Origin: Candidatus Omnitrophota bacterium
GTDB lineage: Bacteria > Omnitrophota > Omnitrophia > Omnitrophales > Aquincolibacteriaceae
DNA: 64,000 bases
NCBI GenBank assembly: GCA_022709525.1
Contig: JAKLIQ010000007.1
Location: forward strand, 49,720-113,719
Direction of reading: 5' to 3'
Each line of letters starts with the position of its first letter. Within the stretch, counting starts at the first letter, position 1. Of the stretch, positions 2 to 56,956 are shown piece by piece. The notes under the pieces are model-generated. The model was not told the origin of the DNA. It made no database searches and saw only the letters and a program-made list of their open reading frames with translations. Made by a program: the position numbers and the translations under genes.

Positions 2-3000
2 GTCGATGGCTGGAGCTTTGTCGAAACGCGCCAGATGACGCGGGCGGCCTTCGAAGATTTAGCTTCTTATTTAATTGAAGGTTCGAACTCGTATTTAGAG
101 TACCAGGAAGCGAAGCTTTCGATGAGCGCCGGCGACACGTTTTCAATGACAATTTCCCAGGGCGGGACGAGGAGTTACAGTTTCCGGGACAAGGAGACCG
201 GGAGGAGTTTTAGTCTTGGCTCGGCGGCAAGCCATGTTCAATGCGAATGGTCGGAACTGGACGCGGCCTACGTGACAACGACGGGAGTTTTAAACGACCT
301 TACAGCTGCCGGTATTGCAGCTGGATATAAGGTAGAAGACGGAAAAGTCTATCGCATCAAAACATGGAGTTTCTCGGAAATCGTTGAAATGACACAAGCG
401 GCGTTTGAGGAATATGGCGCCAAACTTACCGTGGGCTCGGAAGCGGAAAGACAATATAAAGAAGCCCAAGGTCTCATGGATGAAGATGATAGCTTCATGG
501 TCTCAATATCAGGCGACACCATGAACTACAGCTTTCGCGACAAACAGTCGGGCAGGAGTTTCAGTCTAAGCCAGTCGACGATACCAACGCTTTACGATTG
601 GGATGAAGTTGCCGGGCTTGACCCCGATTTTGTGGATGAAACGGGAGGTGTCAAGATCCTTACCGAAGCGGGCGAGGCCGCTGGATTTTTTATGGTTGGC
701 AATCAGGTTTTCCGTGCCGGCGTCTGGAATTTTTCGGAGAATGTCGAAACGACAAAAGCTGTGTTCCTGGAGCAAACGCAGAATTTAAGCGGACAGGCGC
801 TGGACCTTTATAACGAAGAGAAGGAAGGCGTTACCCTTACGGATGACGATACCTATACGCTTCGCGTGAGCTATGAAGACGGCAACAGTTTCAGTTATCA
901 GTCGGCGGACGGCGCAATATCCTGGAGCATTAGCGCGTCAGAGGAATCTGTCCAAGGCGTTGCCGGCGTCGAAAAAACAACCGTCTGGAGTTTTACTTCC
1001 AGCTCTCAATTCACCTGGGCAGCCGTCTTGGCGGAGGTCTACGCGACGCAAGGATTGACAACGCAAGCAGAAATTAACGCATGGGTAGCCGGCCTCAAGG
1101 GAGCGGATCTTGAAAATTATAATGCGATCCTCGCGTCATCCGAAACAGATACGTTTGTCTATAGCGAGCGGGGGACTCACGACGCAAAAACTCAAAGTTA
1201 CGGCGGTCAAACTGCGGACGGTTCTCGGAGCTGGAGTTTCGGGCGATCATTCAAGGCGTCGCAAGGGAGCCCGACGGAAAGCAATCCGACCGGCATTATT
1301 TATGAATGGGGGAATTGGGAATTCACGGCAAATATGCAGCTCAGCCAAGGCGCCGTGTTGGCCCAGATCTATGCCGCGAATAACCTGACGGCGGGGGATC
1401 AGGCCGCGATCGATGCGTGGTACGCAACTCTGACCGAAGAAGAACAAGCAATTTATAACGGCATTATTGCCGCGCAGGGAGCCGATACTTTCAGTTACAG
1501 TTTGAGCAGGAAATCTGAGAACTACATCCGGCAATCCGAGGACGGCACTACGGTTTGGAGTTTCGGACGGACGCTCGACCCCGTGCTCGGCCGCGCGACC
1601 GGAACGCAGGGAAATAATGTCTGGACGTTCAACGAGAATATCAATATGACCCAGGCAAAATGGCTTGCGACCTTTTACACAGAACACGAATTAGGAACCA
1701 CTGAGGCAGTTAACGTTTGGGTCGCAAGTTTGAGCGCCGATGACCGCGCAAATTATGAGCGGATGATCGCCGCGGCTGGAACTGACCAGTTCTCCTGGTC
1801 CATGGCCAAAAATAGCGTCAATTTTGTCCGTCAAAGCGCCGACGGCGTCATTACCTTAAGTTACGGTCATGATAGGATCACGCTTCCGGCTGATGATTCC
1901 ATCGAGTACCGCACTCGCACGATCGAGGATTATTACCGCGCTATTCTGGGTTACGGTGACGAGCTTATCGCCTCAGCGGCTGTCCAGGAAGAGATCGCAA
2001 ATTGGGCCGGGAGCACATTGACGCTCGCCGCGATCGAAGCGGAATTCCGCGGAGGGAACCCGACCGCGGGAGCCGCCTACCGGATCGCCGCGATCACTAC
2101 CATGTATCGCAATCTTCTCGGCCGCGATGTAACCTCTGACGCAACCGTCTCGGATATCAATATCTATGCGGCCGGGAATCTTACGCTGGAGCAGATCAAA
2201 GCGCAGATCGAACACAGCGCCGAATACCGCACGCGCATTATTTCCGGTTTCTACAGCGATCTCCTTGGGCTTGATACGACGAATACCGAAGCCGCCGCCG
2301 CGATCAGCGCCTATGTCAGCGGAAGCCTTACTTTGGATCAGATCAAAACGGAGATCATGGGGACCCCGGCGTATCGCACCCATATGATCACTAGTTTTTA
2401 TAGCGATCTCCTCGGCCGCGACGCGACCACGGATGCGACGATCGCGGATATCAATACTTATGCCAACGGGACGTTCACTCTGGATCAGATCAAAGCCGAG
2501 ATCATGGGGAGCGCGGAATACCGCACTTACATGATCACCGGCTTTTTCCGGGACCTCCTTGGCCGCACGGACTTGAATTCGGAAGTTACGCTCGCGGAGA
2601 TCAATGCGTTCGTTAATGATGCAACAAAAGCCCTTGATCAGATCAAAGCCGAGATCATGGGGGGTACGGAGTACCGGACGCTTATGGTCACCAGTTTCTA
2701 TACGGATCTTCTTGCCCGTACGGATATTACTTCAGACGCAGCGCTGGCCGAGATCAATGCCTGGGTTAACGATACGACAAAATCCGTCGATCAGATCAAA
2801 GATGCCATTATGGCGTCAGTGGAATATCGCACCTTGAAGGTGACCGCTTATTACCGCGATCTCGTCGGTCTTGATGTTACGGATGCTGCGATCCAGGTCA
2901 AGATCGATGCCTACGTTGCGAGCGATCGTTCGCTCGAAGATATCCGGGACGAGATCGTGGCCGAAAATCCGCTAACCCTTGTGTTCTGGAATTTTTCCGA

Positions 3001-6000
3001 AAGTGTCAATAAACACCGTTCGTACGTGGATTCGCGGCTCCAAACAACCGAGGGTTTAGGGACCGAGGATGAAGTGGTCGATACAGCTCCTCTTACGGAG
3101 GCCGAGGCGCTTTCCGCCGAAGAAGTAGCAGAGGACACCGCGCTCGGCGGGGTTGTTGGCGCCGGAGCCGCTTTAGGTAAATCGCTTGGAACGCTTCTCG
3201 CTTTGAATATGGCCGATCCCAAATGGCAGGGCGCCATGATCAGCCATATCCGGCGCTGGGTGAACGGAGTGCTTCAAAGCGAACTTTATACGGTGGAATC
3301 TAACGATCTTACAGAATCCCGGTCGATCGGTTTTGATGTGGAAGATGGCAGCGTGGAATATATTCATGAGCTTACCATTGACGATCCGACCATCCGCGCG
3401 AGCATTATCGGAAATATGGCGACGGATGCGTCCTTAAAGAAAACGATCACCTACACCGTTTCGTTCGACCAGCTTCCGGATCTTGAGGCGCGCGTGAGCG
3501 GTTATCAGCGCGTTTTCCGCCGCACAGCCATTGCCGAACTTTTCCTCACCGTTTTAAATCGAAGCGCTACCGATGAGGAATTAGCGAATTGGGACAGCAC
3601 CGGGCTTTCGATCGAACGGATCAGCCAGGCCCTTGCGGGCAGCGCGGAATTTCGCGGGGATAGTATCCGGACGATGTACCAGGAGATCCTTGGGCGCGAA
3701 GCGACGGAGGCGGAATATCAGGCCGCGCTCAGCTCAGAGCTTACGCTGGATCAGATCGCCGCTCAGATCTATACCACTTCCGATTATCGCAGGATCGCGG
3801 TCTCCGCGATGTATCAGGAGATGTTCGGCGAAGACATCCCCTCGGCAACACTTGATTTTTACATGAATGATCCTGCCGCAAAAAATTTGACCGTCAACCA
3901 GATCCGGGAAGCTTTTACAGAGCTTGACGGCTATCGCGAACAGGCCATCTCCCAATTGATCGTTCAGCTCTACGGACGGACCCCGCATGCAGCTAATGCT
4001 GCGGAGAACTATGCCGGCGAAGTTGAGACTTGGATGGCAAGCGGCCTTTCGCTTGAAGCTATTGAAGAAGCGATGAAAAACGCTCCGGAATATAAAACGC
4101 AGATCATCGAAGGTTATTTCAGGACCTATCTGAATTATACGGATGAGCAGATTATTGCCGAGGCTGACCGCATTGAGGCTTTAGCGAATAGCACCCAGAC
4201 GCTCGATCAGATCAAGGACGGCATCTTGAATGGCCACGAATATCGATCGCTTATCGTTAAGGATCTTCTCGAGGAGATTTGGGGCAGTATTTGGGGAGAA
4301 AACGGAAATATTTTCGGCCAAAACCTGATCGAAAAATATGTTACAGAGGCAGAGATCAATCGATGGGCTAGCACGACGCTGACCATGAGCGAGATCCAGG
4401 AAGCTGTTATGGACACCTTTGATTATCGTTTTGAGGCCGTCACCGTTTGGTATCGTGATCTTCTTGGATATACCGACGCACAAATCGAAAACTCGTATCA
4501 GATGGAAATTACGATATGGGCCAATGGAACCGGATATCCGGGGGGCAGCGGGAAGCTCACTCTCGCGCAGGTAAAAGCTTATCTCATGACGACACCTCGA
4601 TACCGCCAGTATCAGATCCGCACTTATTATGAAGATCTTCTAGGACGTCCGGCGAGACAGTGGGAGGTAAATCACTGGGATAATTCCGCCTGGAGCCTGG
4701 AGGAGATCGAAGGCAAGATCCTTGAGAGCCAAGAATACCGGAAAAAGATGATCTCGGGTTATTACGGCAGTCTTTTAGGTCTTACTGACTCCCAGATCGC
4801 GACCGATACGATCCAGGCAGAGATTCAAAGCTGGGCCGGTAGAACTTACCTGACGCTTGATGATATCGCGAACGAGCTCAAAGGTCAGCATTCTGTGACG
4901 GGATTGAATTATCGCCGGCAGCAGATCACTGCCATGTACCAGGAATTGCTTGGGCGGGTCCACTCCGAGCAGATCGAGGCATTCGCCACCGGGACCATGT
5001 TGCTCTACGAGATCCGGAATCAGATCATGAGCGGCCAGGCCTACAAAACCCAGTTCATCCAGAATTCGTATCTGGCCATGATTGGCCGCGCTGCCAACGT
5101 CGATGAAGTTGCCGCGCTGATCGGCAAGAGCTGTGAAGAGATCACGTTGTATCTCTATGGCACTGATGCTTATCGGCGGAGAGCCGTGACTTCTTTTTAT
5201 AGGGACCTTCTCGGCCGCGAGCCGGAAACAGGAGCGGTCACTTACTGGGTTACCGTAAAAAAGAACGTGGGTAATGTTACCCGCCTATGGACGGTCGAGG
5301 AGATCAAAAACTACTTTTTAGAAACCGAAGAATATTCCAATAGAGTCGTCAATGGTTATTACCAAGAGCTATTGGGCCGTTCGGCGACGAAGGGTGAAAA
5401 GTCATCGGCATACGCAACGCTTTCTAACAAAACTCAGACTTTCGAGGGTATTCGGACTGCCATTATCAATAGCGCAGAATACCGTAAGAAGATCATTACG
5501 GGATACTATAACGATATTTTGCTTCGCCCTCCTGATACGGAAGGCCTTAACTACTGGGTGGGAACAGAGCTCTCACTTGCCGAGATCGAGGAGGATTTCT
5601 ACGGAACCCGGGAATACCGGAATCGTATGGGGGCCGAGTCTTTTGTCGCAAGCGTTACAGATATTTATCAAACGCTTACGGGGCGCCCCCCCACGCAGGC
5701 CGAGCTAAATTATTGGCTTGCCACCGACATTACGACTGTACCCACTAGCAAGTCGGACCCTAACTATGCCCGTTATTGGTATACAGTCCCTTCGGGTATC
5801 CGGACGGAAGTTCGAAAATCCGAGGCCGGCCGCCGGTTTGCTATCGAAAAATATTATCGTGAAATGTTAGGTATCACCGACTATTGGGGAGTGCCAGGCC
5901 GTTTTATACCCAGCATCGATTCTTATATGGGGACAAACCCTGATACTAAAAAGACTTATACCCTCGACGAAGTCAAAGCCGCGATCCAAAAGCTTATGGC

Positions 6001-9000
6001 CTATAAAGATCGAACGCTCCGTAGTTATTTTGTCACCTATCTCGGCCGCGTCGCTACGGAAAACGAGGTTCGAAGCTTAGTTAAAAATGGCGATTGGGGG
6101 AATGTCGATTTGTCCAGTCTTGAAGAACAATTCAAAAAATGTTCGGTGACGACCTACGATTTTAAGCTTTCGGACGGTACTAATTTTCATTTTGGCTCCG
6201 TTGGTACGGAAAGCAAGACCTATCAACTCAACAAACTTTATCAGAAACTTTTAGGGCGTAATGCAACGGAGGCGGAAAGAAATGCCTGGAATCCCGCGGC
6301 TGTAAAGATCGAAGATCTAGAGAAATCGATGAAAGCAAGCAATTTGGAATATCGCGGCCGCGAAATAAAAACGGCTTATAAAGATCTTTTGGGGATCACG
6401 CCTTCCGATGCCGAAGTGAACCGCTGGCTTGCTAGCGGATTATCTGCGGATACGGTTAAGGGCCTTATTGCCGGCGCAGCCCCCTCGCGCTGGCGCGCTG
6501 CCAGCAGTTACTACCAGCAGCTTCTGAACCGGACTCCGTCCACCGCAGAGATCTACGCTTTGTGTTCGACGGGGAAGACGTTCGACCAGATGCGCAAGAG
6601 CATTGAGGACGGAACGGAATACCGCACGTTGATCGTCGGTCAATATTATGAAACGTTATTGGGACGTCCGGGGAGCGCCTCGGAGATCGCAGGGTGGGTG
6701 AACCAAGACCTGATGCTTTCCGAGATCGAGGCCGATTTTAAACAGGCGCCTGAATACAGAAGCCACCAGATCAACGCAGTTTATCAGGAAGTGCTGGGGC
6801 GGTTAGCCACAACAAATGAGATGACCGCGGCGCAGGCGATCCTGACGGATGCGTTTGAAAATCCGCCGGCGGATCCCGCTCAAACCGCTCTTGAAGTCGG
6901 ATTAGCCGCTATACGCGCCCGCCTTGTCACGCGCCAGGAGTATCGCGCGAAACAGATCGCTGAAGCCTGGACATCCGCTTTTGGAAACGCGCCGAGCGAT
7001 TCCACGCTGAATTACTGGAAATCTTCCACGATGGGGTTGCGGGAAATGACCCAATTATTCTCGGTCTTAAGCGAAGCTTTGCCGGGGGTTACCGAAACGG
7101 TCCAATCGCAATTGACCGGGGTTCAACGTATCGCTTGCGGTTCAAGCAGCGCGACTAACTGCACCCGGAACGGATCCGATGCCGCGAACAGTACGACGAA
7201 TTGGACGCGCGGGTGGATGCAATCGGGAACCGGCCTTTACACATATTGGCAGTCGGATTATTCGACAACGGGGCCCGCTTATTATCGAATGGATTTTGGA
7301 GATCCCGGGGCCACCAGCTGGGAATTGTCGCTTGATGTGCAGAATCATAACATCAGAAATACCAAACCCCCTCTTGCGGGCACCTATTTTGAGATCGAGG
7401 CCCAGATCTGCCCTCTGGAATCCTGCACACAGGATTCGCAATGGATCTCGGCAGGCACTATCCAGATCCCGGCAACCGAATCCGAACAGACGGGAACCTA
7501 CCGGTTTGATACCGCCGCGCCTATCACAGGCCAGCACCTCGTGCGCTTTAAATGGAAGAATGACCAAGCGGACAATACGGGAGATAACAATCTCCAGATC
7601 AATCTCGTGAAGCTTTCATCGCTTGTCTATGCGAGGGAAGCTGAAGTTAACGAGATCTGGAGCGATAGCCATCCTGTCATTACTTCAGCCGCTGAAGCTT
7701 TAACGGCACGGTATCAGGCCGCCGGTCTTGGGGCTTCTCCGACCGCGGCTCAGCTTGCGGCTTACCGGGCCGGGCTCTCAGAAGACGAACAAAGCGTTTA
7801 TGACGCACTCGTCGAAACGGTTGCCGCTAACAGCGCCGAAAACCGGGAGGCGGGGATCCGTCAAATGTATCAACTCCTTAGAGGCGAGGCTCCGGATGAG
7901 ACGACTTTGGAGCAATGGCAAACGTCGAGTCTTACGCTGAACGAGATCGAAGGGCGGCTTATTGACGGCGCCGGCTATATCAAAAACGTTGTTTATAAAG
8001 TGGATGCTTACGGGGATGGCAGTTTGGTGCTCGGACGGACTTTTGATCCTACGAGCGGCAAAGTGGAATATTTTGGCCAGCGACAGCTTACGGACGCGGC
8101 CGGTCTTGATCACGGCATCGGAACCAATCAACGCGCCGTAGAATTCTGGACATACAGCGGAGCGCTGAACGATCCGGCTTCCAAGATCGTGTCGCATCGG
8201 GTGACGTTGGATGTTTACGGGAATGGGACCCGCACACGCACCGCATCATGGACGGTCGTCAACGGCCAGGATGTTGCCGGAAGCGCGGCCTTCGAAGAAA
8301 CTCGAGAGCTTTCCTGGTCGGGCGGGCTTGATCAAGGGCTGGCGGATAATACGCAACGCGCGAGTGAGACGATCCGCTACACGGACAGCACTTTTACGAC
8401 CCGCGGTTCGATCTCCTTTTCGCTGGATGTGAACGGCGATTCATCGCTTGTCCGTTCCGCCAGTTATTTTGTGAATTCCGACGGAACACGCGGAGAATTG
8501 ATCGGTTCGACCATAAAGGAGAATCGGTACGGAACGGATATTTCGGTCAGTAAGAGTTACGACGACTTAGCTTTCAGCGAAGTAAAGACTATCAGCGAGC
8601 AGGAATCCTTGGCTGACGGTACAAGCGATATTACGACGTATGAGGTTTTGGCGGACGGATCCAGGGGCTCGGCGTTAGAATATTCCAACACGCAGCAGCT
8701 CGGCGCTCTTCTTTCCCGCACGATCGTTTATACCGGTTCCAGCCGGACAGCCATTTCCCGCGCATTTGACAGCATGCAGGCGCTTATTCCCAATCGGGGT
8801 TACGACGCTTTCCGTGTCCTGCATTATCAGATTGAACCGCTCAGCGGTCTTGCCAGGACCCAGATCACCTCGGATCATTTAAGAGGCGATTACTTGATGG
8901 AGTACGTTTATAACAGTTCCGGCGCTGTGGTCGATCTCAAGACCTGGGAATTTCCTCAAAATGCCGTATCGGGCGCGCCGGAGATGACCGACACTTTGAC

Positions 9001-12000
9001 AGAAACAACGCCCTCAGCCCTTGTCGATTCCAGCATCGTGACCGACAGCGCGAGCGCTCTACCCGTTGTGATCGAAAGCTTTGACAATGTTAACCAATTG
9101 CGGTGGACACTGCAGGGTAATACTTCCATTGAGAACGGGGTTTTGAAGTTACAAGGCGGTACGGGGGGCTGGGGCGACAATGCGTTTCTTCAGTCGGTCA
9201 GTCCTATTCATAATCCAAGCTGGTCGGCAGATTTTTCGATCGCTGCGGGGGCTACGCAAACCCATCTGGCGGTGGAGGGAACCGGGACAGACGGCCGCTA
9301 CCGGCGTTTGGGGATCGTTCAGCAGTCCGCTAATCAATTAAAGGTTCAGATATACAATGCTGCTACGAACAATTGGGAATATCCCGTTCAGAATATTCCC
9401 TTTGTGGCCGGCAAAGAATACACGGTCGATTTTGAGGTGGTGAACGGAACGCTTAGTCTTTATCTGTACGAGAAAGGAACAGCTCATCCCGCCGCCTCGC
9501 TTTATTCCGTTTCAGTCCGGGATTGGGCGCAGGCGAATTTCCATACCTGGATATGGAGCGGTTCGGCGACGATCTCCGGTCTCCGTTACGGCGCGAATCC
9601 TCCGTTGCCTTCCGTTCTCCAGTCACAGGTAAATGGGGCTAACCGCGTTATTTGCTCAGGATCCAGCATGGCAAACTGCACCAGGACCGGCAACGACACT
9701 TCAACGGATGTCGGAAGATGGACAAAAGGCTGGATAGAATCGGGCACCAGCGCCTATACCTATTGGGATTCGAATACGACGGGAGCGGTTTATTATCAGA
9801 TGGATTTTGGGAGCACGCCCCAAACGACCTGGGAATTTTCAATGGATGCGCAAAATCATCCCTTCAGGACAGCTTCTCCCGTCGCTAACAGTTTTTATGA
9901 AATAGAAGCCCAGATCTGTCCGTTAACGGTTTGCACTCAGGAGTCTCAGTGGGTCTCCGCCGGGACGTTGAAGATCGCCGCGAACGATTCGCAGCAAACC
10001 GGGACGCTTCAATTTAACGCTGCCTCGGCTCTTTCCGGCCAACACACAGTCCGTTTTAAATGGAAAAATAACCTTGGGAACAGCACAAGCGATAACAATC
10101 TTCAGATCAATTCGATCCGGCTTTCCTCACTTTCTTATGCGATCCCGTCCCCGACACTAGCGACCAATCTATTGCCGCTAAACTGGACACTTCGGGGGAA
10201 CACCTCGTTGCAAAACGGCGCGTTGACGTTGCGGGGCGGTACGGCGAACTGGGGGGATAACGCCTTTCTCCAAAGCGTCAACCCTCTCAGCAACCCAAGT
10301 TGGTCCGTGGATTTTTCGATCGCCGCGGGATCTTCCGGTTTTCATGTTGCCGTGGAAGGATCAGGGGCGGATGGGAGCTATCGCCGGTTAGCGTTGGTCC
10401 AGCAATCCGCCAACAAATTACAGGTCCAGATCTGGAATAATAATCGTTGGGAGTATCCCAAGCAGAACATTTCTTTCGTGCCCGGAAGAGAATATACCGC
10501 GGATTTTGAAATGGTGAACGGAACGCTCCGGGTCTTTTTCCACGAAAAAGGCACCCCGCGTCCCGCCATAGCGACTTATTCGGTCTCTACCAGGGACTGG
10601 GCGCAGGCGAATTTCCATACGTGGATCGCTTCGGGATCTGCCGTGATCTCCGATATGCGCGTTTCATCCATGACTTACGCTTCGCAGCTTCCGCTGATCT
10701 CGCAGCTTGAAGCGATCGATCCTTCCTGGAATTTTGACGGGATCGTCGGAGTAGCGAACGGGACCCTTCAATTGACGGGGCCGGGAGGAACAGCTTATTC
10801 GCATTTCAATACGAGTTATTTGGTTCCAAGTCTCAATCCCGCTTACTCCGTCGATTTTTCACTTACCAATGTGGCCAATCCGTCATTTTATCTTGCAGTG
10901 GAGGGAGTGGGACCGAATTTAGGGAGTCCGGATAACGGAACATATCGCCGCTTCGGGATCAAAGTCGATAGCGGAATAGCGACCATCCAAGTTTTTGACG
11001 GCTCGCAGGCATGGAGCTCGGCTCTGCAGAACGTCTCCATGCGCCTTGAGGCCGGGAAAGAATATACGGCAGATTTTATCTCGCAAAACGGCGTCATCAG
11101 GATCTATCTTTACGAAAAAGGCGCGCCGCGTCCGGCTGACCCATTTTTTACCATCCAGAATACGGATTGGCAGGGCATACGGCTTCATAGCTGGATCATA
11201 AACGGAACGGCCAATATCAATGAGATCCGCACGGAGCTGAACCCTGTTTCTGTTGCTTCGAATGTTTCTACGGGAATGATTTACAATCAGAATTATGCAA
11301 GCGCCGCGCTTGGCGCAACCGTGACCGGCGGAGTGAGCGTTGAATCCGCCATCGATGGACTTCTCACCGATAGCGGCTCCACCGGATTCTGGTATGTCAA
11401 TGCTGCTCGGAACGAGAATCTAGCGGCGCTCGGCACGATCGATCTGGGTCAGCTAAGGCGGATCAACGAAATCGGTCTTCAGCTTTGGGACGGCCAAGTT
11501 GATCGGGTTTATTACAACTATAAAGTTCAGATCTCGGCGGACGGGGTCAACTGGACAACCGCTTTTGACGGAACGGGGTCTGGGACAAATTTTCAGGGCC
11601 TGCAGACCATTCAATTTGCAGAACAGGATGTCCGTTATATCCGGATCTCGGGAAGCGGCAACTCAGTGAACGCGGGCTTCCATGTTGAAGAAGTATACGC
11701 AAAACTTGTGCCGCCTTCCGCGATCGATTATGCGTCGCTTGCCATGGGTGCCCGGTTCATTCCGGCCAATCTCAACGTGGGCGCCCCGAACGCCGTTATC
11801 GATCCGGGCGTTTCAGCTACGGGCCACTACTTGTATTCTTTCCTCTGGAGTACCGCGGCAAAAAATGAAACGCTTTACGATATCGGCACTCTCGACCTTG
11901 GCCAATCCCGGACCATTAATGAGATCGGCGTTCACTTCTGGGATGGCGATAACCGCTCTTATTACAATTTCAGCGTCGAAGTTTCCACTGACAATGAACA

Positions 12001-15000
12001 TTGGACCACGGTCTTTGATGGCACGGGTTCCGGGCAAAATTATCAGGGTCTTGAAACCGTCCAATTCAACGCGCAGCAAGTCCGTTATGTCCGGATCAAA
12101 TCGAGCGGCAATACGGTCAATAACGGAGCGCATATCGAGGATATTTCAGCTCGCTACATAGAGAGTTACCAGTCCGCCGGGGCGCCGGCCCCGATCGGCG
12201 GGATCGTGGGTTATACGCATACTTATAATGTGGATTTTGGCTCCGAAGGCGGAGATACGTGGAGCATCTATGCTCCTTATGAGCAACTCGCGGGGTACGG
12301 CGTCAATTATGCCTCATCCGCGCAGGGCGCCACGCTTTTCTCCATCGCGTCGGGGCCTTCTCTCGCCGCGAACGCGATTGATGGGAATAGCGGGACTTTC
12401 TGGATTGCCGGCACCAGCGGCACGCAGAACGAACGACTTTATGAGATGGGCACGATCGACCTGGGTCAGCCCCGCAATATCAACCAGGTCTCTTTTGATT
12501 TTAGCAGCGCGAATAATCGCCTCCACTATAACTATAAGATCGAAGTGATGGACGCGACCGGCCGGTGGCAAACGGTCTTTGACGGGACGGGTTCGGGGCA
12601 GGATTATCAAGGTCGCCAGATCGTTAACTTCAATACCATCAACGCCCGGTATGTGCGCATCTGGTCCAGCGGGAACAGCCACGATACAAGCGGCGCGGCG
12701 ATCGATAACCTCGTTGTTACGCGCAGGCAGCTTGCCGGGGATGAATTGAGCGGCCTCATGGCGGAAGTCCTTGAAAACGGCGAATGGGTTTCGCTGGGTG
12801 AGCTTTCAGCCGATGGGATGTTTTCTTTTACCAAGGCGCTTTCGGGCGTTCAACAGATCCGATTTGCTTCGCCCCTGCCGGAAGATTTTTCGATCAGCGA
12901 GCTAGTGGCCTATCGCGTTTTCAGGGATCCCGGGGTCTCCACCGAAACGCTTCCTCTGATCAGCGAGACTTTTTATAAAGGGACCCGAGGTTCCGAGATT
13001 ATGGATTCCATCGCGCAATACACTTATGTCAATGGGGCGCGGACGAATTCTTCGGTGATCCAGTATTTTTATAAGGATGAAGCCGGCAACGCGCGCAGGG
13101 CGGCCGAGGCGGTCGGACATGACACATGGGAAATTTGGTATGCCGACACGCTGAATTCGCAAGGCGTCGAGCGTCATTTCCTTAATACAATTTCCGGATC
13201 GGCTTTTATGTCAACAGCCACATCCGGCTGGTCACTGGATAGCCAATCTGCCTGGGCGACGGGATCTGATTCCGGCTCTGCGTATTATCTGGCGGATTTT
13301 GGAACGGAAGGGAACGATCTTGAAATTGTTTTGAATGTTCAAAATCACGGCGCAAATCCGATCCCGGGCAGCCGGTTCGATATCAAAGTCGAGGTTTGCG
13401 TCAATACGACATGCTCGGATCCTTCCGACTGGGTTAGCCAGATCGTTTCCGTTGATGCGTCTAGGACGTCCCAGAATATCGCGGCGGTTTTCGGAGGCGG
13501 CCTGACGGGTCAGCATCAAGTTCGTGTTTCCTGGCTGAATTCAACCGAGCAGGCGACTGTCCCAGAATCATTTGCGGCGTACCGGAATAATCTTCAGATC
13601 AATTCTCTGACCTTCAATGAATTCCGGTCGGTGTCGGGTCAATGGACGCTGGATTCCAGAACTTATTATCGGGACGATAAACAAACAATCGATTACGTTT
13701 TAGAATATGACGCGGTGACCGGAGAAGCCGTATCGTATTCGAAAAATATCTACAGTGCGGCGGATGGAGTCATCGGATCAGATGATCTTGCGGCGGTTGT
13801 TCAATACAACATCAGCGGTCAAGCGGACGTCCTTGTCCCGGGAGACGCTGCCGCCGATGACATCACGGGCGTTCAGTTCACGAATCTCTGCACCGATACG
13901 GCGTTGCCGACCACCGCGAATACCCGCGAAAGCGCGTTTCTCTCCAATTTTCTCGCCAATGGTTTGGTTGCGCAGCTTGCGTCCGAGCAGTCGTTCGACA
14001 GGCTGGGTAACAAAGCCGTTCTGGTCTATCAATTTTCTTATGGGATCAACACGAACACTGCGGGGCTTATAGTTTCAACGCTCAATCCTGCGGCAGCTCT
14101 TTATCTTTCTCAGCGGATGGAATATCAGTACCGCGCGAATGGAACGCTTGAGTCGGTGGAAAATTTTATCCAGCGCGCAAGCGGCTGGGCTTTGAACACC
14201 ACCACGTTCTATCAAGCGGATGGTAACGATATCGATTATATCCAGACCCATGTAACGGGAGGCCCAGACACCTTCACCTATTACAGTTATCATGCCTCCG
14301 GAAAGTGGACGGGGGATTACCGTCTCTACATGACCGCGCGTTATTCGGAGAACGGAAATTCCGGCGAGCCGGGCGCGCTCCTGGGGAAAGCTTTCTTTAA
14401 CACGAGCTCCGCTTATATCGCAGAAGGCGAAAGCGCCGCGGGCCGGGTTTACTACGATCCTTTGAAGTATGGCTCACTCATCGTCCGCGCGGAAGACTAC
14501 CAGGCGGTTACGGATGATCTCGCGCCTCTCGCAAACCGGGAACTCGTGAACGGTCTTTTTGTCGCAAGATTTACGACCACGTATTATGACTATGACGCCG
14601 TCACAAAAGAAATGCTTTCATCTTCGTCCTATGCGACGACCTACGCCAGTGGGACCGCTGCTACGGCATGGTCCAGCACGACCGGTTATCGCGCGGACGG
14701 GCAAACTGATTATGCGGTGTCATCCGTAGGTGGAGACCCCAATAACCGGACGCGGACCCAATATAACTATTTAGAACTCGGCCACGGTCTGGATGGCATT
14801 TATCTCTACTCCGAGACAAAGAACGAACTAACGGGCGCGCTCAAATCGCGCGTTTACACAAATGCCGCTGTGGAAGCGGACCTTTTAGGGCTGATCTCCC
14901 TTGATTTTGTGAACGGGTGGCCGGCAGCTCAGTTCGCGACAGCGCTTTATGGTGTTGTCACGCTCACCGTAGAAGAATTCCCGGTCGACCAGGGCCTGGA

Positions 15001-18000
15001 TGCGCTCGGGACGCACCCTTACAGTTTGACGCTTTCAACCTATGCCGTGTCGGGGCGCTTGGCCCGAACCGATCGCTTCTATGTTGCCGAAGGGCAACGG
15101 ACGCTTGAATCGCAAACCTTTTACAAGACCGACGGAACTCGTATCGATTTCATCATCAACTGTAATGCCGCCGGAAAATACGAAAGCAAGGATGTCTATA
15201 TTTACCGCTCCGGCGCTTACAGCCATCTGCTTTATCAGACGGAGCGTTACCACCGGAGCGGGGTACTTACCATGGTATCCACCTTTACCTACTCCATAAC
15301 CGGTTCCGCGCTCCGTTTAACGTCCGTTAGCCATCCCTCGCGGAGCACAGAGACTTTTTACTATACCGCCTCGGGCATTCTCGAGCGATCGGTCATGGTC
15401 AACCACAACGGAAAAAAGCTGCAGGAGACCTTCTACGATTCCGTGACCGGCCTCAAGAACAGAGCTGTTTCTTTCGGGATGGACGGTTCGGTTATCGCCG
15501 AAGAAATCTATGAATACGATGCCGACGGGCGATTAATGAAGTCGACAAGGGCCCAGAAAGACGGGACCGGCCGGGTCATGATAACGACTTACGAAGGCCG
15601 GAAAGGTTTTGAGCGGGCGATAAGCCGCAAGACATACGCCGATGGGAGTCTTACGGATCTCGAACAGGAAACCACATCGGTTTATAACGCCGATGGCAGC
15701 CGCACGGACAAAACGATCGATCACACTGCCGATCCCGATAAAGAGAACGAGGTCTATAAGACCGTGACGGTCTATGACGCCCTGGGACAGAAGGTTTCGA
15801 GTGAAAGCTATGATAAGGCCGGCAAAAAAATCGGGGCGACTTCGAATTACACCTATGATGAGTACGGCCGGGAAAAAACCTACAAAACCTGGTCTTCTAA
15901 AGAGGGATGGCAGCTGGTCCGCATTACCCGCTACAACGATTTCGACCTCGTGACCGAACAGTGGACCGGAGACAAAACCAAATCCGTGATGGAGTATTAC
16001 AACAATTTTACCCTGAAGCGTTCGGACTATGTCGTTTACACGCTTGGGGAAGCGGATATGTTTGGCTGGTCAACCTATAACATTATGGGCGATGAGACCG
16101 GCACGGATTCCGGGCTTATTCCCGGAGGACCGACTGACCGTATGGTCAAAGCTGCGGAAGCTGCCGCAGCTGCAGCCCAAAAAGCGGCGGCGATTGCCCA
16201 GCAAATGGCGACCCGGGCGCAGCAGCAGGCCCAGGAAGCTCAGGATGCCGCAAACGAAGCGCAGGATCGCGCGTCAAGAGCTCAGGACCGGGCAGATGCC
16301 GCCGGCGATGCCGCAGAACGGGCTGAAAACGATATGTTGGCCGCAGAAGCCGAGCGTGATCGCGCTGAGGCGAACCGGCTTCGGGAGCAAGCGAAGGCGG
16401 AGTTGGCCACAGCAAAGCGGCTACTTGAGGAAGCCGCAAGTCTTGCGCGGTCAGCTGCTGCAGCCATGAGAGAAGCGGCGAAGATGATGGATGAGGCCTC
16501 AAAGGCGATGAAAGCGGCAGCGCAGGCCATGAAGGAAGCAACCCAGGCGATGGAGAACGCGCGTGACGCTTACGAGGCGCTGAAGGCTCTCGGAACGCTC
16601 GATGAGGATGCGATCCAGGCGACGATCGACAGTTACAGCGACAGCATCTTGTCGATGCGGGACAGTACGGCCTCCCTATTGGACAATGCGGCGAGTTTGA
16701 GTGATAGCGCCGGCAGTTTAAGGTCTTCGGCCTCCAACATGGATGATGCGGCGGACAGTTACTCCGATATGGCCACCCTGGTAGGCCTGGTTTCCGCGGA
16801 GATGTTTGGCGGGGACGCGAGCACCGGGGAAGGGGCTGTGCTTTGCGATTGGCTTTCACATATCTGTTGGGGCGACGGCTGGGCGTATTTCCAGCTTGGC
16901 GATGACAATGAAGACGGAACAGACGATTCGTTCGTGATCTTTGGCAGCCCCCGTAACGTTACCACCGGAGAAGGAACGCAGATCCATAATTGGACCCTTT
17001 CCGGCGATCAGACCGCAGCTTATTGGGATGGTATTAGCACTATGGGTGACGATGGTTTTCACTGGACCGGCCAGTGGCGTGTGACGGCGGACGGCGACAT
17101 TTTGAACGGGCAAGTGCTTTACACCTATCAGAATTCCGTTTACTACGACGGCGATCATCAGGAAATGGTCTATTACTACAATGCCGCCGGAGATCTGATC
17201 AAGGTTACCTGGGATTACGAGTATAGCGATTCCCAGATGATGAGCGATACAGAAGTCGACAACGAGGGAACTTGGTACAACACGGACTGTGCGGATGGTC
17301 TGGCGGCCTTCAACGCAGACTATGCCGCAAATCCGAACGGCGATTGGGAGCAGAACGACGACGGAACCTGGAGCTTAACAACAAAAGATATTTGCGAATC
17401 TGATGTGACTTGGGTCGGCATCATTTTCGTTATCGTTGTGATTATCATCGCGATAGTCATAACAATTGCGAGCTGGGGCACTGGGACCTGGATCGGCGTA
17501 GCAATGGTCGCCGCGGCATGGGTCTGCATTGCTGTCGCCATTGTGTGTGCTGCCATGATGATCTATAGCAAGCTGACCGGCGATGATGCGTTCGGTCTGG
17601 ATGACACCGAATGGGCGGCTTATTCCGTTCAATTTTCATGTTTGGCTATATCTTTGGGAGCTGGCGCAAGCCGTTTATGGTCGAGTACTTTTTACGCCAG
17701 CTTGGTAACCGGATTTATTAATGCTCTATTCACATACGGAATGACCGGCGATATTGGGAAAGCAATCACCGTCTTTGTTTTAAGCGTTGTTTTGAGCCTT
17801 CTCTCAAAATGGGTACCGTCTAATTACTTTATCGTTAATTTGATCGTTTATTTTGTGATCACCACGTTCGTTTATGCGCTCGCGACTTATCTGACAGCCG
17901 ACGAGGGAACCTACGACTCCTTATGGGATGCCGTGGAGGATGTCTGGGTCTATTGCCTTGTGATTGCGTTTTTTATGGCGCTCTCAGCCCGAAGCAGTAG

Positions 18001-27000: not shown

Positions 27001-30000
27001 AAGCTTCGAGCTGACGCATAGCGTTTATTACGGTGAAAACGGTGTGCCGCTTCAAGTTGATTTAAGGGCGGCAACGGGAGGTCTTTTCAGTGACGCGAGC
27101 TATACAAGTTATGCCATTTCCCGGAACGCCCAGACTGGGTTTTTCCAGGTTTCCATTTCAGGAGGCGATCTGGGTGCCAATGACAGCTTTAATGAGAATT
27201 ATCACCTCTATACCCGCGAAGAGACCAATCATGGTTTTACGACATTTTTGACCAATAACGCCTGGATTGCCGGCGATTTCCATTGCGATCTCGAAAATGG
27301 CTCAAGTTGGGCAGAGTACCATGATTATGCCGCAGAGACATTCCAAGCGGGAGTGATCAGTTTTCAACAATCAATTGAAAAAGCCACGGTATCGATCCAG
27401 CTTTGGACTTCAACTCAATGGAATGAAGGCCATTACGGGAAGCTTGTTCTCGCAGTAGGTGCGATCGCGGTAGGATTTGCGGCCGGAGGGTGGGCCATCG
27501 CCGCAGTCACGGGAACGGGTGCCATTGCTGTAGGCATGACGGCAGTAGTGATTAAAAATATCGCCTGGGGCGTGATCTTCTTTTCTGCTTTTGCCGCAGT
27601 TTCCGTTGCGGGTGGTATTGTCTATGCCGAAAAGCAGAAAAAATTAGTAACAGATCAAGATAACCCGATGGATCCATGGCAGGCCGCCATACAAATATCC
27701 AATGACAGTTGGTGGCTCCACAGGGCTCAGAATTATACCCTTACGACCGCCCTTTTCTTTTTTGCGACCGCGATCGGAACGCCCCTCATGAATCTCGGGC
27801 TGCAGAATGTGGTTGTGCATAGCTGGACTTCGGCGGTCGCAAACTTCTTTAACCGATTTACCTCAAGCGCCTTCGGAAAAGTCATTACCGCACCCTTCCG
27901 ATGGCTTTTTGGGAATGTTTCCGTGGAAGTAATCGCTCAAAAAGAAACTATCGCGGCTTTAAGCCGCTTTGCCGGGGTCAAGGCCTTAGAGGTCGGAGCC
28001 CGCGTATCTTTGACGGGGGCCAATGCGTTTGCCGTCCATCTCATGAGATTTGTTTCCATTAAGGCCCTCTTCGGAAGCGCGATCCATTTGGGCCTCACGC
28101 TTCCATTCCAGATGAATATTGCCGCGAATTTGATTTCAGATATTTTCTATCAGGGGCAGGTCCGTTCCGTTCAGGAACTTGAAGCCACGATGTTAAGCGG
28201 TGGTTGGTCAAGCGGCCGCGGAGGCCTTTTGGGCGTTTGGGATGGTATTAAAAAATCGGTTGCAATGATGTTCTCGCAATCGACGACCGGCTCAGGGCTT
28301 TCCCAAGCGGTCCAGCAATGGTCAACCCCGGAGTTTTGGGTATTTGTGGCTGCCTTTCATTTCCTTTCCTTTATTCCGACGTACTCCGCCGCCGCGGTTG
28401 GAAGATTGGGTGAGTTTATGCTCATCGGCCCCGCGAAAAAGATCTTAGGCGGTTTCGTCCATGCCTTGGGGAGCGTCTTTGGATCTTCGGTAAGCATCGG
28501 GTTGGCGAATTTGCAAGCGGGGGTGGTCAGCTTTATCTGGGGCAGTGGCAGTGTTCTCTGGCAGAGCATCAAGAGTCTTTTTGCGGGTGTTTATGAGGAA
28601 GTTCTAAAAGAGCCGGTTCTGCAAGTTCTTTTACTGTCATGGTTGCCTAGCAGCGCTCAGGAGTATGTGGTGGAACTTTTGGATGCGGCAGATGGCGATA
28701 TGTCGCATTTTATCAGCGCGAGGATGGGAGCGCTCAGCCAAAACCTCCAAGCCTTGGGAGCGGCTGCGCCGCAGGCGATCAAGGGTCTTTCTGTCGGGGC
28801 GCAAAACGATGTTGCAGCAAGACTTAATACGGCCATGATCGCGTTTAAGGCGGGAGATTATACCACCGCCCAAACCAAACTTGCCGAAGCGCTTAATTTA
28901 ATTGGAAGCCAAAAAACCGGGAACCAGCAATTTGACGGCGCGGTCCGTAATCTCCAGGCCATGCAGGCGACCCAGCAAGGGGTTTTAAATCGCTTTAATG
29001 CCGCGCTCCAGGATCCCAATAGTGCTTTGGTTAAGCAATACAGTACGTCGGTCTTATCTGAGATGTATTCGCTTGTTTTCGCCAATCCCTTCATGGACCT
29101 TGGCGCTGTCTCCTCGACGGGGATCGGGGATTTCTCCGGTCTTGCCGCTGTAGCGGCTATTTCTCTTAAACTGTCCGATCCAAAGGTCACCATTAATATC
29201 AAAGGAATGGACGCTAAACTTAATGCCGTGATCGCCAAGCTCCAGAAAGCTGTCGAAGGGATCAGCGATCCCCAGGCAAGGCAGGCGCGCATAAACGCGC
29301 TTGTAGCTAATCTTGCCATAAACGCCTCAGCCCTTACTTATACCGACGCCCAGGGCCAATCGCATGTCAATGAACAGGTTTTAGCGAACGCGGTGCTCGT
29401 TTCACTTGCCGGCGCCGTTACCGCTGAAGCTCTTACTTCTTTTGGTATCAGTCAAAGGGTTATCGATGCTTATGGCTCATTGGAAGGCGAAGTCCAGGCT
29501 GAGTTCCGCCAGGCGCTTTCGGAACGCATCGCTTCCGCAGATGAAAATGCGATCGTTTTTCTCATGATCGGCGCTCAATTGAAGACCGGCTTGAAATCCA
29601 TCGCTAAGGCCGAATCTCTTGCCGGAAAACTCGGTGTTTCCTGGCTGGCCCGTGGCGTCCTCGCTCAAATCGCGACAACAGAAGCCCAGGCAAAAGCATT
29701 GGGCGAGATCCTGATTCAGAATGCCGGCAGTTTTGAATTCTCCAACTTGCTGCAATTCCAGGGCATCTTGACTGCTTCAGTCCTTCTGCAGACAGCGACC
29801 ACAAAAGAACAATTGGTTGCCGCTTTCAACGTTCTTGGAATTACGCTTACAGGCGATCTCTTGGATGCTTTTGAATCGCTTATGACTAGCCGTCCTGATT
29901 TCTTAAAAGACGTTGCCGGCTCTTTAGTGGAATTTGTCCGAAAAGACGGGAAGGTAAGCGCTAGGGATATCCGAAGCACAGTCCTTCTTTCGGTTTTCCG

Positions 30001-48802: not shown

Positions 48803-50106
48803 TCATTTCTCCGATAAAAAAATGCCGCGGTTGCGGTAATCCGGACCTTGTCCCCATTGGTAGTCTTGGGACGATGGCGTTTTCCGGCATTTTTCCAAAG
48901 AAGGACGAGGCTTTTGTCCCCGAAGGGCCCCTGGAACTTATGAAATGTCATGGGGACCCGGACCGAGTCTGCGGCCTTTTGCAGCTCAAACATTCCTTCG
49001 ATCCCCATATTCTTTTCGGCGAAAGCTATGGCTACCGATCAGGCCTCAATGGGTCCATGCGCGAGCATTTGCAGGATATCGCCCGCAAAATCAAAGGTTT
49101 TGTCACTCTTAAAGAAAAAGATGTTATCGTGGATATTGGCAGTAATGACGGGACGCTACTCAGTTTTTTTTCCGGAGAAAAACTTTCCTTATGGGGGGTT
49201 GATCCCACAGCCGGCCAATTCAAGAAGTACTATTCCGAAGATGTTCAAATCCTTCCGGAGTTATTTTCTGGGAAACTTATCAAGAAAAGTCTCGGGGTAA
49301 AAAAGGCGAAGGTGGTTACAGCGATCGCTGTCTTTTACGACCTTGACGCTCCGGCGGAATTCCTTAAGGAGGTTCGGGAGATTTTAAGTGATGACGGGGT
49401 CTGCGTCCTGGAGCAAAGCTATTTACCGTTGCTTCTCGAGAATCTTGCCTATGACACGATCTGTCATGAGCATATGGCCTACTATCGGCTCAAACAGATC
49501 CGGTGGCTGGCGGACCGGGTCGGTCTCAAGATCATCCACTGCGAGAAAAATCAGGTCAATGGCGGCAGTTTCTGCGTGGCGTTGGCGCAAAGAAACTCCG
49601 CATTTTCCGAAGATTCGGGAACCGTCAGTCAGTTTATCGAGGAGGAAAAGCGATTGTCGCTGGATACTTTATCTCCCTTTAAGAGTTTTTTTGACAATAT
49701 TTTTAAGCATCGTAAGGCCTTGCAGCGTACGGTCAAAACCCTGCGCGCTGACCGCAAGTGTGTTTTAGGATACGGGGCCTCGACCAAAGGCAACGTTTTG
49801 CTGCAGTTTTGCGGATTCACTCCCGAAGATATCCCGTTTGTGGCAGATGTTAACGAAGACAAATGGGGCCGGGTCTGTCCCGGGACCAAGATCCCGATCA
49901 TTTCCGAGGAAGAAGCCAGAAGTAAAAAACCGGATGTTTTTTTTGTCCTTCCTTGGCATTTTAAAGAAGGATTTTTGATAAAAGAAAAGAAATATCTCCG
50001 CGACGGCGGCGCATTCCTTTTTCCGCTCCCCAAAGTCGATCTTATCGGCTTAAAACAGATTGATTTTCCACCAATTTACAGCCCAGCCGCATCACTAGTC
50101 ACCTGA
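48799..50106 (+). CDS. NDP-hexose C-methyltransferase-like protein (TylC3/Methyltransf_13-14 architecture with N-terminal Zn-ribbon CRGCG)
   Basis: KKCRGCGNPDLVPIGSLG...VDIGSNDGTLL...CHEHMAYY...LGYGASTKGNVLLQF. Last gene of the + strand operon. Confidence 0.65.
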   Translation: MIISPIKKCRGCGNPDLVPIGSLGTMAFSGIFPKKDEAFVPEGPLELMKCHGDPDRVCGLLQLKHSFDPHILFGESYGYRSGLNGSMREHLQDIARKIKGFVTLKEKDVIVDIGSNDGTLLSFFSGEKLSLWGVDPTAGQFKKYYSEDVQILPELFSGKLIKKSLGVKKAKVVTAIAVFYDLDAPAEFLKEVREILSDDGVCVLEQSYLPLLLENLAYDTICHEHMAYYRLKQIRWLADRVGLKIIHCEKNQVNGGSFCVALAQRNSAFSEDSGTVSQFIEEEKRLSLDTLSPFKSFFDNIFKHRKALQRTVKTLRADRKCVLGYGASTKGNVLLQFCGFTPEDIPFVADVNEDKWGRVCPGTKIPIISEEEARSKKPDVFFVLPWHFKEGFLIKEKKYLRDGGAFLFPLPKVDLIGLKQIDFPPIYSPAASLVT

Positions 50107-50487: not shown

Positions 50488-50937
50488 CTATTTGAGAGCG
50501 GCTTTGACAGCTTCCTGGATGCGTTTGCCGTCGGCTTTTCCCTGAACGGCAGGCATCAGAACTTTCATGAGTTTTCCCATGTCAGCAGGGCCTTTGGCGC
50601 CGGACGCAGCGATCGCCTTTTGAACTTCAGTTTTCAACTCGTCGTCGGATAGCTGTTTCGGCAGATAAGCTTCAAGAATGGCAAGTTCAGCCTTTTCCTT
50701 ATCCGCCAGGTCTTTGCGGCCGCCTTTTTCGAAACTCTCCAGGCTTTCCCGCCGCTGTTTGGCCTGTTTGGCGATAATACCCAGGATATCGGCGTCGTCC
50801 GCCTTGTCCTTTTTCGTCTGGATTAGATAGTTCCCGAGGGCGCTTTTAAGCATCCGCAAGGTCGAGACCTTGACCGCATCTTTGGCCTTCATGGCGTCGA
50901 TAACATCTTTTTCGATCCGTTCTTGTAAGCTCATCAC
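50488..50937 (-). CDS. yqeY: GatB/YqeY domain protein
   Basis: MMSLQERIEKDVIDAMKAKDAVKVSTLRMLKSAL...AELAILEAYLPKQLSDDELKTEVQKAIAASGAKGPADMGKLMKVLMPAVQGKADGKRIQEAVKAAL. Confidence 0.9.
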   Translation of the reverse strand: MMSLQERIEKDVIDAMKAKDAVKVSTLRMLKSALGNYLIQTKKDKADDADILGIIAKQAKQRRESLESFEKGGRKDLADKEKAELAILEAYLPKQLSDDELKTEVQKAIAASGAKGPADMGKLMKVLMPAVQGKADGKRIQEAVKAALK

Positions 50938-51020
50938 TTAACTCCTTTGTGTGAAGGTGGTTTATAGTTTATAAAACAAGTTCCTGGGCTGTCAGTCTTC
51001 AGCTTTCAGTCATCAGCGAA

Positions 51021-51057
51021 CTGAAAACTGATAGCTGATAGCTGATTGCTGATAGCT
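51021..51057. repeat. tandem heptamer CTGAAAA-CTGATAG-CTGATAG-CTGATTG-CTGATAG in the yqeY upstream / batB-like downstream gap
   Basis: ctgaaaactgatagctgatagctgattgctgatagct. An adjacent short hairpin tttcagt...actgaaa is also present. Confidence 0.5.
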
Positions 51058-51062
51058 ATTAT

Positions 51063-53045: not shown

Positions 53046-54025
53046 CAGGGAACTTTCATGAGTAGGGTTCGCCGCAAAAAGATATCAAAAAGAAGCAGAA
53101 AAAGCGCCGGGATAAGGAATACCGGGAAAAGTTCGTTGTAGCTCCGGTACTCCTTGACCTTCACTTCGCTTTTTTCAAGTTTGTTGATCCGTTCGTAGAT
53201 CTCCGAAAGTCCTGCCGGGTCGCGCGCCCGGAAAAAAAGCCCGCCGGTGATGTCGGCGATGCGCTTCAGGGTCGTTTCATCGATCTCCACATTGGCCTGG
53301 ACATAACGTTTTCCGAAAAGCGGGTCATCGACGGGGAAGGGCACCATCCCTCCCCTTCCGACCCCAATCGTGTAGACCTTGATGCCAAAGCTTTTGGCGA
53401 GCTCGGCCGCCGTGACGGGGTCGATATTGCCGGCGTTATTCTCCCCGTCCGTGATCAGGATAATGACTTTGCTTTTGGCGTTGCTGTCCCGGAGGCGGTT
53501 CACGGCGGTCGCGATCCCCATGCCGATCGCCGTCCCGTCGGCGATCATCCCGACCCGGATCTCGGAAAGGAGTTCGATCAGGATCCGGTAATCAAGCGTG
53601 AGCGGGCATTGCGTGAAGGCTTTTTTGGCGAAGACCACAAGCCCGATCCGGTCATTTTCGCGGCCTTTGATGAATTTGATGGCCTCCTGCTTGGCGACGA
53701 AGATACGGTTTTCCGGCTGGAAGTCCTCGGCCAGCATCGAACCCGAGATATCCAGTGCGATCACGATATCCACGCCGTGCGTCTGGTATTCCTTATCGCT
53801 TGCGACACTGGAAGGACGGGCCAGCGCCGCGATCAAAAGCGTGAAGATCAGAACCCGCAATATGGGCAGAAGCTTGAAAAGGAACATCCGTGGAGTTGCG
53901 GGATGGTCTTTCAGGAGTTCAAAGGAAGAGAAGGCGAATTCGAGCTTTTCGCGCCGTTTTGCCCACATGAAAACGAGCGGGATCAGGAAAAGAAGGAGGA
54001 AGAACGCCGGGTTTCTAAACACCAT
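53045..54025 (-). CDS. BatA-like vWA-domain membrane protein
   Basis: Two N-terminal TM helices, then VDIVIALDISGSMLAEDFQPENRIFVAKQEAI...VVFAKKAFTQCPLTLD...ILITDGENNAG. 326 aa. Overlaps neighbouring genes on both sides. Confidence 0.85.
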   Translation of the reverse strand: MVFRNPAFFLLLFLIPLVFMWAKRREKLEFAFSSFELLKDHPATPRMFLFKLLPILRVLIFTLLIAALARPSSVASDKEYQTHGVDIVIALDISGSMLAEDFQPENRIFVAKQEAIKFIKGRENDRIGLVVFAKKAFTQCPLTLDYRILIELLSEIRVGMIADGTAIGMGIATAVNRLRDSNAKSKVIILITDGENNAGNIDPVTAAELAKSFGIKVYTIGVGRGGMVPFPVDDPLFGKRYVQANVEIDETTLKRIADITGGLFFRARDPAGLSEIYERINKLEKSEVKVKEYRSYNELFPVFLIPALFLLLFDIFLRRTLLMKVP

Positions 54026-55834: not shown

Positions 55835-55946
55835 AGAGCTCGCCCCGTTAGAAGTTTAACCCTATCACAAAAAATCATAGAACGATATTTTCCCGGAAAT
55901 GGTTGGATATGTGTTCCCGCCATATTTTTTTGAACTTCTAACGGGG

Positions 55947-56936: not shown

Positions 56937-56956
56937 AGAGTTCTCCTTTTTAGTGA

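Follow-up and report, generated by a model that had tools for sequence, protein, structure and literature searches.

The stretch of DNA considered here, a window of 64,000 nucleotides on contig JAKLIQ010000007.1 of a Candidatus Omnitrophota bacterium, opens within a giant open reading frame (ORF) that runs on the + strand from 35 to 40771, and all that is of main concern lies inside that ORF. Counted from its first ATG it specifies 13,578 amino acids (aa); the frame extends back, still open, to window base 2, so that the true protein exceeds this length. A cassette of lectin-type domains, at 7129-13640, makes up a small portion of the at least 13,578 aa of the protein, a one-ORF context that was overlooked in a preliminary description of the same DNA. 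In order, the cassette consists of a domain here termed CBM6/60-like, for its relationship to two families of carbohydrate-binding modules (CBMs), a 460-aa spacer, a ConA-like domain, a second CBM6/60-like domain, two further ConA-like domains, three discoidin domains and a third CBM6/60-like domain. The preliminary description had distinguished three copies of a cysteine (Cys)-containing beta domain interspersed with three ConA-like and three discoidin domains. Both the three homologous copies at its coordinates (BLASTP, profile search) and the order and types of their neighbours (Pfam for the discoidins; AlphaFold2, AF2, and Foldseek for the ConA-like domains) are borne out. As to the organism, the window encodes a DnaK with identities of 94, 87, 87 and 85% to those of Candidatus Omnitrophota metagenome-assembled genomes, and an identical 400-aa fragment of the giant protein (P0001) comes from GCA_035453765.1, on a contig of 1.2 kb, and bears the name Candidatus Omnitrophota at NCBI. 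The 94% identity and the named fragment therefore place the organism in that phylum.

The Cys-containing domain and its relatives

The domain, about 140-190 aa in size, has three homologous copies. Copy 1 (aa 2355-2545; 7097..7669, +; confident core aa ~2394-2532) was delimited by BLASTP, alignment, profile search, AF2, Foldseek and hhalign, and copy 2 (aa 3195-3370; 9617..10144, +) and the diverged copy 3 (aa 4372-4541; 13148..13657, +) by the first three of these. BLASTP within the protein aligns aa 2356-2545, 3195-3369 and ~4396-4538; the identity is 56% for copies 1 and 2 (E 1e-69) and 30-33% for copy 3 with either of the others (E 6e-17 to 2e-15). Might further copies, of this or of the ConA-like domain, be hidden elsewhere in the protein? 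With its filters switched off, a profile search of the 13,578 aa returned exactly three of each. At the DNA level the copies are 62-72% identical, which points to old duplications; being no more alike than that, they are not an artefact of assembly or of a collapsed repeat.

The ordered motif set that had been attributed to all three copies is accurate for copies 1 and 2, save that their first Cys pair is C-x7-C (CGSSSATNC and CSGSSMANC), one residue longer than had been written. In the three-way alignment copy 3 retains YY-x-x-DFG, VQNH, C-x4-C, GQH-x-VR, W-x-N and NNLQIN, and is without the N-terminal Cys pair, QTGT and LSSL. Copy 1 thus has C2368/C2376 (nucleotides 7136 and 7160) and C2459/C2464 (7409 and 7424), copy 2 has C3207/C3215 and C3295/C3300, and copy 3 has just the C-x4-C pair, C4455/C4460. 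The C-x4-C loop is accordingly common to all three, and the C-x7-C of copies 1 and 2 is carried by an N-terminal extension of some 35 residues. In a wider alignment of 15 instances, C-x4-C lies in a loop insertion that only the window copies have, and neither pair is found in any of the relatives outside the giant protein; both are therefore lineage-specific additions. Taking the Cys motif as the signature of a family was rejected on the same ground, and the conservation of Cys positions, which had been put forward as a check, does not define the domain: the pairs are absent from outside relatives and the first is missing even from copy 3. Given their short range, the likeliest role of the pairs is as small disulfide staples that would stiffen loops near the binding face.

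Relatives are few. An exhaustive HMMER search of 1.84 billion representative proteins with a three-copy profile (E<=1e-3) matched only 13 proteins, and besides the giant protein just two of them are close. Word-indexed protein searches with copy 1 and with the 15-sequence alignment as queries, and a scan of Joint Genome Institute metagenomes with the three-copy alignment, gave no relatives. It is five of the matches, P0003-P0007, that reveal what the domain is. These are multidomain proteins with chitobiase-C-terminal-like domains, some also with a GDSL esterase or a galactose-oxidase-like propeller, and the stretches of them that the profile matches are those that pass the Pfam model CBM_6 (34-64 bits, cut-off 28.9) and likewise CBM60 (31-55 bits, cut-off 28.2). 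At E<=0.1, CBM60 matches 12 of the 15 aligned domain instances and CBM_6 matches eight of the 15. When an alignment of the window copies only was compared by hhalign with one of P0003-P0007 and P0013, the probability was 99.05% (E 2e-18, 123 columns). By direct scoring the window copies do not reach membership of either family: copies 1 and 2 give 18.3 and 15.4 bits with CBM60 (PF16841; E 0.003 and 0.027; cut-off 28.2), copy 3 does not match that model, and none of the three matches CBM_6 (PF03422) at E<=1.

From the 15-sequence alignment AF2 built a model of copy 1 whose core, residues 40-178, is a beta-sandwich of nine strands with a predicted local distance difference test score (pLDDT) mostly of 85-95. 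Foldseek places it, at E of about 1e-5, with PDB entries for Eph-receptor ligand-binding domains, CBM16, CBM29, CBM4, a hyaluronan-binding module and a porphyran-binding CBM, and in BFVD with phage tail-fibre and CenC-like modules. Weak PDB sequence matches to FN3, monobody and antibody domains (best E 8e-4) were judged spurious, resting as they do on a strand resembling 'Y-x-I-x-Y-G-E-T-G-G'. AF2, Foldseek and hhalign agree in giving the domain the beta-jelly-roll fold, of about 120-140 residues, that typifies the CBM6/35/36/60 superfamily. So, judged by its homologies and its modelled fold, the domain is a diverged CBM6/CBM60 (galactose-binding-domain-like) beta-jelly-roll member and not a new fold. 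That it is a Cys-containing beta domain was correct, in that it is a beta-sandwich related to carbohydrate-binding modules. That it might be a novel family, a proposal to be dropped should it match a well-characterised one, falls, because of its links to the well-characterised CBM6/CBM60 superfamily.

Does the kinship with CBMs extend to what is bound? The Cys domains could instead bind a protein or other non-glycan ligand, as Eph receptors do, or be mere structural spacers. Eph-receptor ligand-binding domains are the top Foldseek matches, the jelly-roll fold is versatile, and no window copy reaches a Pfam CBM cut-off; however, sequence homology leads to proteins that score as CBM_6 or CBM60 and not to Eph receptors, and the neighbouring domains are all of lectin types. 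With regard to spacers, W153 and N155, in the numbering of copy 1, are invariant across 15 of 15 domain instances from different proteins, and Y63, D66-F67-G68, N83, R150 and N165 nearly so. Such conservation of W, N, D, Y and R positions suggests a binding or metal site rather than a mere spacer. A non-glycan or purely structural role is judged improbable.

Neighbouring domains of the cassette

The first of the ConA-like, lectin/glucanase-fold domains (aa 3006-3197; 9050..9625, +) was identified by AF2, Foldseek and profile search. Copy 2 (aa 3373-3545; 10151..10669, +), which is 65% identical to it, and copy 3 (aa 3549-3738; 10679..11248, +), which is 36% identical, were identified by alignment and profile search. 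None of the three matches a Pfam family at E<=1, PF13385 (Laminin_G_3) and PF06439 (DUF1080) included, so that of the Pfam families by which the folds were to have been checked, the one for discoidins is matched throughout and these two are not matched at all. What assigns the fold is structure. The AF2 model of copy 1 (pLDDT 76.6; predicted template-modelling score, pTM, 0.78) has 685 PDB matches in Foldseek at E<=1e-3, with 3mep and 3o12 among the top ones, and legume lectins, CBM66, GH16 glucanases, PL7 lyases and DUF1349-type proteins are matched with template-modelling scores (TM-scores) of 0.55-0.70. The two-sheet curved beta-sandwich of about 180-230 residues that characterises the ConA-like superfamily is thus present in the model, and the assignment is supported at the structural level only.

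A fold shared with enzymes raises the issue of catalysis. Could the modules belong to, or serve to direct, an enzyme that degrades polysaccharide, its catalytic function residing either in the ConA-like domains, given their GH16/PL7 fold, or in ‘dark’ flanking sequence? CBM6/35/60 and discoidin modules are usually found alongside glycoside hydrolases, the highest TM-score of the ConA-like domain is to a GH16 beta-glucanase (3d6e, 0.68/0.70), with PL7 alginate lyases matching also, P0006 and P0007 combine the Cys-domain relative with GDSL esterase or galactose-oxidase-like domains, and digestion of cell walls has been proposed in the literature. On the other hand, no catalytic Pfam family was found across the 13,578 aa, the spacers are without relatives, and the ConA-like copies lack, by eye in an alignment, the E-x-D-x-x-E motif of GH16 and the Q-x-H motif of PL7. 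That last rejection is an informal one. Taken together these points make an enzymatic role rather improbable.

The discoidin (F5/8 type C) domains are straightforward. At aa 3768-3879 (11336..11671, +), aa 3917-4034 (11783..12136, +) and aa 4107-4214 (12353..12676, +) they score 49.8, 47.9 and 57.8 bits, respectively, with PF00754 and 46.8, 53.9 and 60.5 bits with PF22633, all above the Pfam gathering scores, which are about 28 (28.2 in the case of the 49.8 bits of the first domain).

The spacers are less easily placed. That of 460 aa (7670..9049, +), with recurring ‘D-V-Y-G-[DN]-G’ hairpin-like motifs, has no relatives in Pfam, the PDB or the sequence databases; a word-indexed protein search with it retrieved the self-fragment only, and a comparison of the cassette spacers with the PDB gave no match. 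Beta-hairpin-like motifs (VDAYGDG, LDVYGNG, LDVNGDS) and Y-x-Y-D/Y-Q-Y patterns recur both in it and in the stretch at 13658-14400. They are reminiscent of YD/RHS-type repeats, for which no Pfam RHS match was found, and the spacer repeats may represent the antiparallel beta-helix that has been described in giant proteins of Omnitrophota.

The giant protein, its membrane segments and downstream genes

Recognisable domains, namely repeats resembling DUF4214 and the lectin cassette, account for about 10% of the giant protein, and about 90% of it is Pfam-dark. The part that precedes the cassette (aa 1-2340; nucleotides 35-7054) is repetitive, with repeats of about 110-120 aa (‘SYSFRDK..GRSFSL’) in aa 1-600 and of about 50 aa in aa 600-2340, the latter with sub-domain Pfam matches to DUF4214 (E 1e-13) and to the phycobilisome-linker family. 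Beyond the cassette, aa 4545-13578 have neither internal repeats at E<1e-5 nor credible Pfam matches. The N-terminal two-thirds of the protein are rich in N, S and T and poor in K and R, and the last 3,500 or so aa are rich in K, R, E, L and A. No Rfam match was found in the window.

On which side of the membrane would the cassette lie? A hydropathy scan finds no transmembrane candidates in aa 1-5793. The first membrane-spanning region is a cluster of 5-7 hydrophobic helices at aa 5794-5985 (17414..17989, +), and a second cluster, of two helices, is at aa 9137-9182 (27443-27580). The N-terminal flank of the first cluster is acidic (1 K/R vs 7 D/E) and its C-terminal flank more basic (4 K/R vs 3 D/E). 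Cysteine is scarce in the protein, with 32 residues in 13,578 aa (0.24%), yet there are eight neighbouring pairs within 10 residues of one another vs 0.7 expected by chance, and five of the eight are in the three Cys domains. Other short-range pairs are C5604/C5611 and C5752/C5787, just before the first transmembrane cluster, and C12143/C12151. The transmembrane-free aa 1-5793, the acidic flank before the first cluster, the paired Cys of a Cys-poor protein and the difference in composition between its N- and C-terminal parts are hints to topology, and because of them an extracytoplasmic placement of the cassette is proposed. The preliminary description had come to such a location from the presumed disulfides. 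That step remains an inference, and it agrees with the transmembrane-free N-terminal part and the acidic flank.

Immediately past the giant ORF is a small gene (40927-41487, +) of the AbiEii-type nucleotidyltransferase toxin family (E 9e-8). It is followed by a sugar-modification cluster (41723-50106, +) encoding GDP-mannose 4,6-dehydratase, an O-methyltransferase, a DegT aminotransferase, a GT2 enzyme, a C-methyltransferase and two tandem paralogous B12-binding radical-SAM enzymes of 480 aa each; this complement suggests a heavily methylated deoxy-amino sugar. Further on is a Bat/MoxR operon (50488-57814). An AT skew that falls to -0.83 at 51100-51700 (- strand) is due to a low-complexity tail of about 150 aa, rich in Q, D, N and E (QQQDQQQN...), at the C-terminus of a BatB-like VWA-TPR protein of that operon.

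A glycan-modification cluster immediately downstream of the giant ORF region invites the thought that the cassette binds glycan of the cell's own envelope, so anchoring or organising the giant protein on its own surface in the manner of S-layer or cell-wall-binding proteins, and the lectin folds would suit this just as they suit binding to another cell. But the protein already has transmembrane anchors, the AbiEii-like gene and a 236-bp gap separate the giant ORF from the glycan genes, to which there is no functional tie, and the published interpretation favours attachment to host or prey. Binding to self is therefore considered unlikely.

Proposed role and comparison with known systems

From sequence and models together, the most plausible role of the domains is that of a multivalent glycan-binding adhesion cassette within a membrane-anchored Omnitrophota giant protein, and this we take to be probable, with real room for doubt. 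The cassette, sited in the long transmembrane-free part that is N-terminal to the first transmembrane cluster, would be exposed outside the cytoplasmic membrane. There its nine beta-sandwich modules, of three different lectin folds, would bind glycans multivalently, with the disulfide staples stiffening loops near the binding face of the Cys domains. The most likely target would be an envelope polysaccharide or glycoprotein of the cell, whether host or prey, that these ultra-small bacteria attach to. A glycan-binding surface protein, possibly directed to a host or prey, is what the preliminary description had envisaged, and this fits both the Omnitrophota taxon and published views of the giant proteins of that phylum.

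Several considerations weigh against this interpretation. The window copies of the Cys domain themselves score below every Pfam CBM cut-off, the CBM60 scores being sub-threshold and those for CBM_6 nil. No credible solved structure for the domain came from a PDB sequence search, its TM-scores in Foldseek are a modest 0.4-0.5, and its top matches there are protein-binding Eph-receptor domains as much as CBMs. The N-terminal 35 or so residues of copy 1, with the C-x7-C pair, are modelled with low confidence. A hydropathy scan is the sole basis of the topology of the giant protein, and the N-terminus of the protein, being beyond the window, puts a signal peptide out of view. Lastly, the domains of the giant-protein subclasses named in the literature, dockerin, TSP3, EF-hand, C39 and SecA-DEAD, have no Pfam matches (E<=0.01 for aa 1-9000; E<=0.001 for aa 9001-13578).

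A further-reaching possibility, and a doubtful one, is that the Cys-stapled domain constitutes a new CBM family in the CAZy sense, its disulfide-constrained loop conferring a specificity unseen in CBM6/35/36/60, and that together with the ConA-like and discoidin domains it forms the host-recognition head of a giant adhesin of an Omnitrophota episymbiont. For CAZy, a CBM family requires demonstrated carbohydrate binding. Were it so, expressible modules of about 140 aa would provide a handle on which host glycan an uncultivated predator or episymbiont recognises. The giant proteins of Omnitrophota are for the most part ‘dark’, and what they do (attach to host or prey, digest walls) is a matter of debate; the lectin cassette is among the few interpretable parts of this one, of at least 13.6 thousand aa (kaa). 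Its modules are small and independently folding, and could be expressed for glycan-array screening of the surface recognised. As the subfamily is rare (13 proteins in 1.84 billion, two close proteins and no solved relative), a structure or a ligand would add a new branch to the CBM6 superfamily.

How does the protein compare with those already described? Omnitrophota giants have been reported to be membrane-anchored, with discoidin repeats, DUF1080 and CBM35-like barrels in long transmembrane-free N-terminal parts, and were proposed to attach to the surfaces of hosts or prey and to process them (West-Roberts et al. 2023, bioRxiv 10.1101/2023.11.21.568195). Long proteins of the phylum have as many as 36 copies of ConA-like PF13385 domains, and the giants are again membrane-anchored, with membrane-spanning helices or a signal peptide present in 94% of proteins >10 kaa (Nielsen & Lui 2026, bioRxiv 10.64898/2026.06.07.730766). 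The protein encoded in the window has what marks such giants: an Omnitrophota genome, a length >10 kaa (at least 13,578 aa) and predicted transmembrane helices (aa 5794-5985 and 9137-9182).

With the dockerin-type giants of West-Roberts et al. (2023) it has in common a transmembrane-free N-terminal part with discoidin repeats and CBM-like barrels and, further C-terminal, transmembrane helices followed by a probably intracellular tail. In contrast, the giants of that set are of at least 30 kaa, as against at least 13.6 kaa here, and the CBM-like modules of the window are without flanking dockerin-like helices; the marks of the dockerin-type subclass, namely dockerin/EF-hand and thrombospondin type 3 repeats and a SecA-DEAD domain beyond the transmembrane anchors, are not seen within the 13,578 aa, the scan covering what the window encodes. 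With the tandem-repeat-scaffold class of Nielsen & Lui (2026) it has in common its origin and length, as an Omnitrophota protein >10 kaa, as well as repeated ConA-like domains and transmembrane helices. However, it has just three ConA-like copies, none of them recognised by PF13385, and unlike that class most of it is non-repetitive and Pfam-dark.

The closest relative from another organism is a long ORF in GCA_003535755.1, recovered in pieces as P0008 (contig DPYK01000178.1) and P0002 (contig DPYK01000059.1). P0008 ends ‘...RLTWLNDQSTG’ and P0002 starts ‘WLNDQSTG...’, so they are adjacent pieces of one gene. On DPYK01000178.1, where the relative begins ‘VDVYGDGKYV’ in the manner of the window spacer motifs, an open frame of 1,989 aa runs into P0008 across a run of N, and the combined ORF is of at least about 3,400 aa, with pairs of discoidins alternating with a Cys-less domain. 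The domain that alternates with discoidins there is the same one (25-30% identity), but it is without the Cys pairs, the recovered pieces have no ConA-like domains, and the remainder is unrelated to the window protein.

With CBM6/CBM60 themselves (and CBM35 and CBM36; PF03422/PF16841) the resemblance is in a jelly-roll core of about 130-140 residues, in homology through intermediates that pass both Pfam models, in the C-terminal ‘G-x-H-x-VR-x-W-x-N ... N-L-x-I’ strands that those intermediates and the window copies have in common, and in the occurrence of repeated modules beside other lectin domains. The window copies differ in their C-x4-C loop insertion, in the C-x7-C extension of copies 1 and 2 and in their sub-cut-off Pfam scores. 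Fold, superfamily, type of protein and the presence of lectin modules in Omnitrophota giants are thus already known, and this is no new kind of system. What is new is a rare, Pfam-sub-threshold CBM6/60-like subfamily with Cys-stapled loops and, beside it, ConA-like domains that no sequence model recognises.

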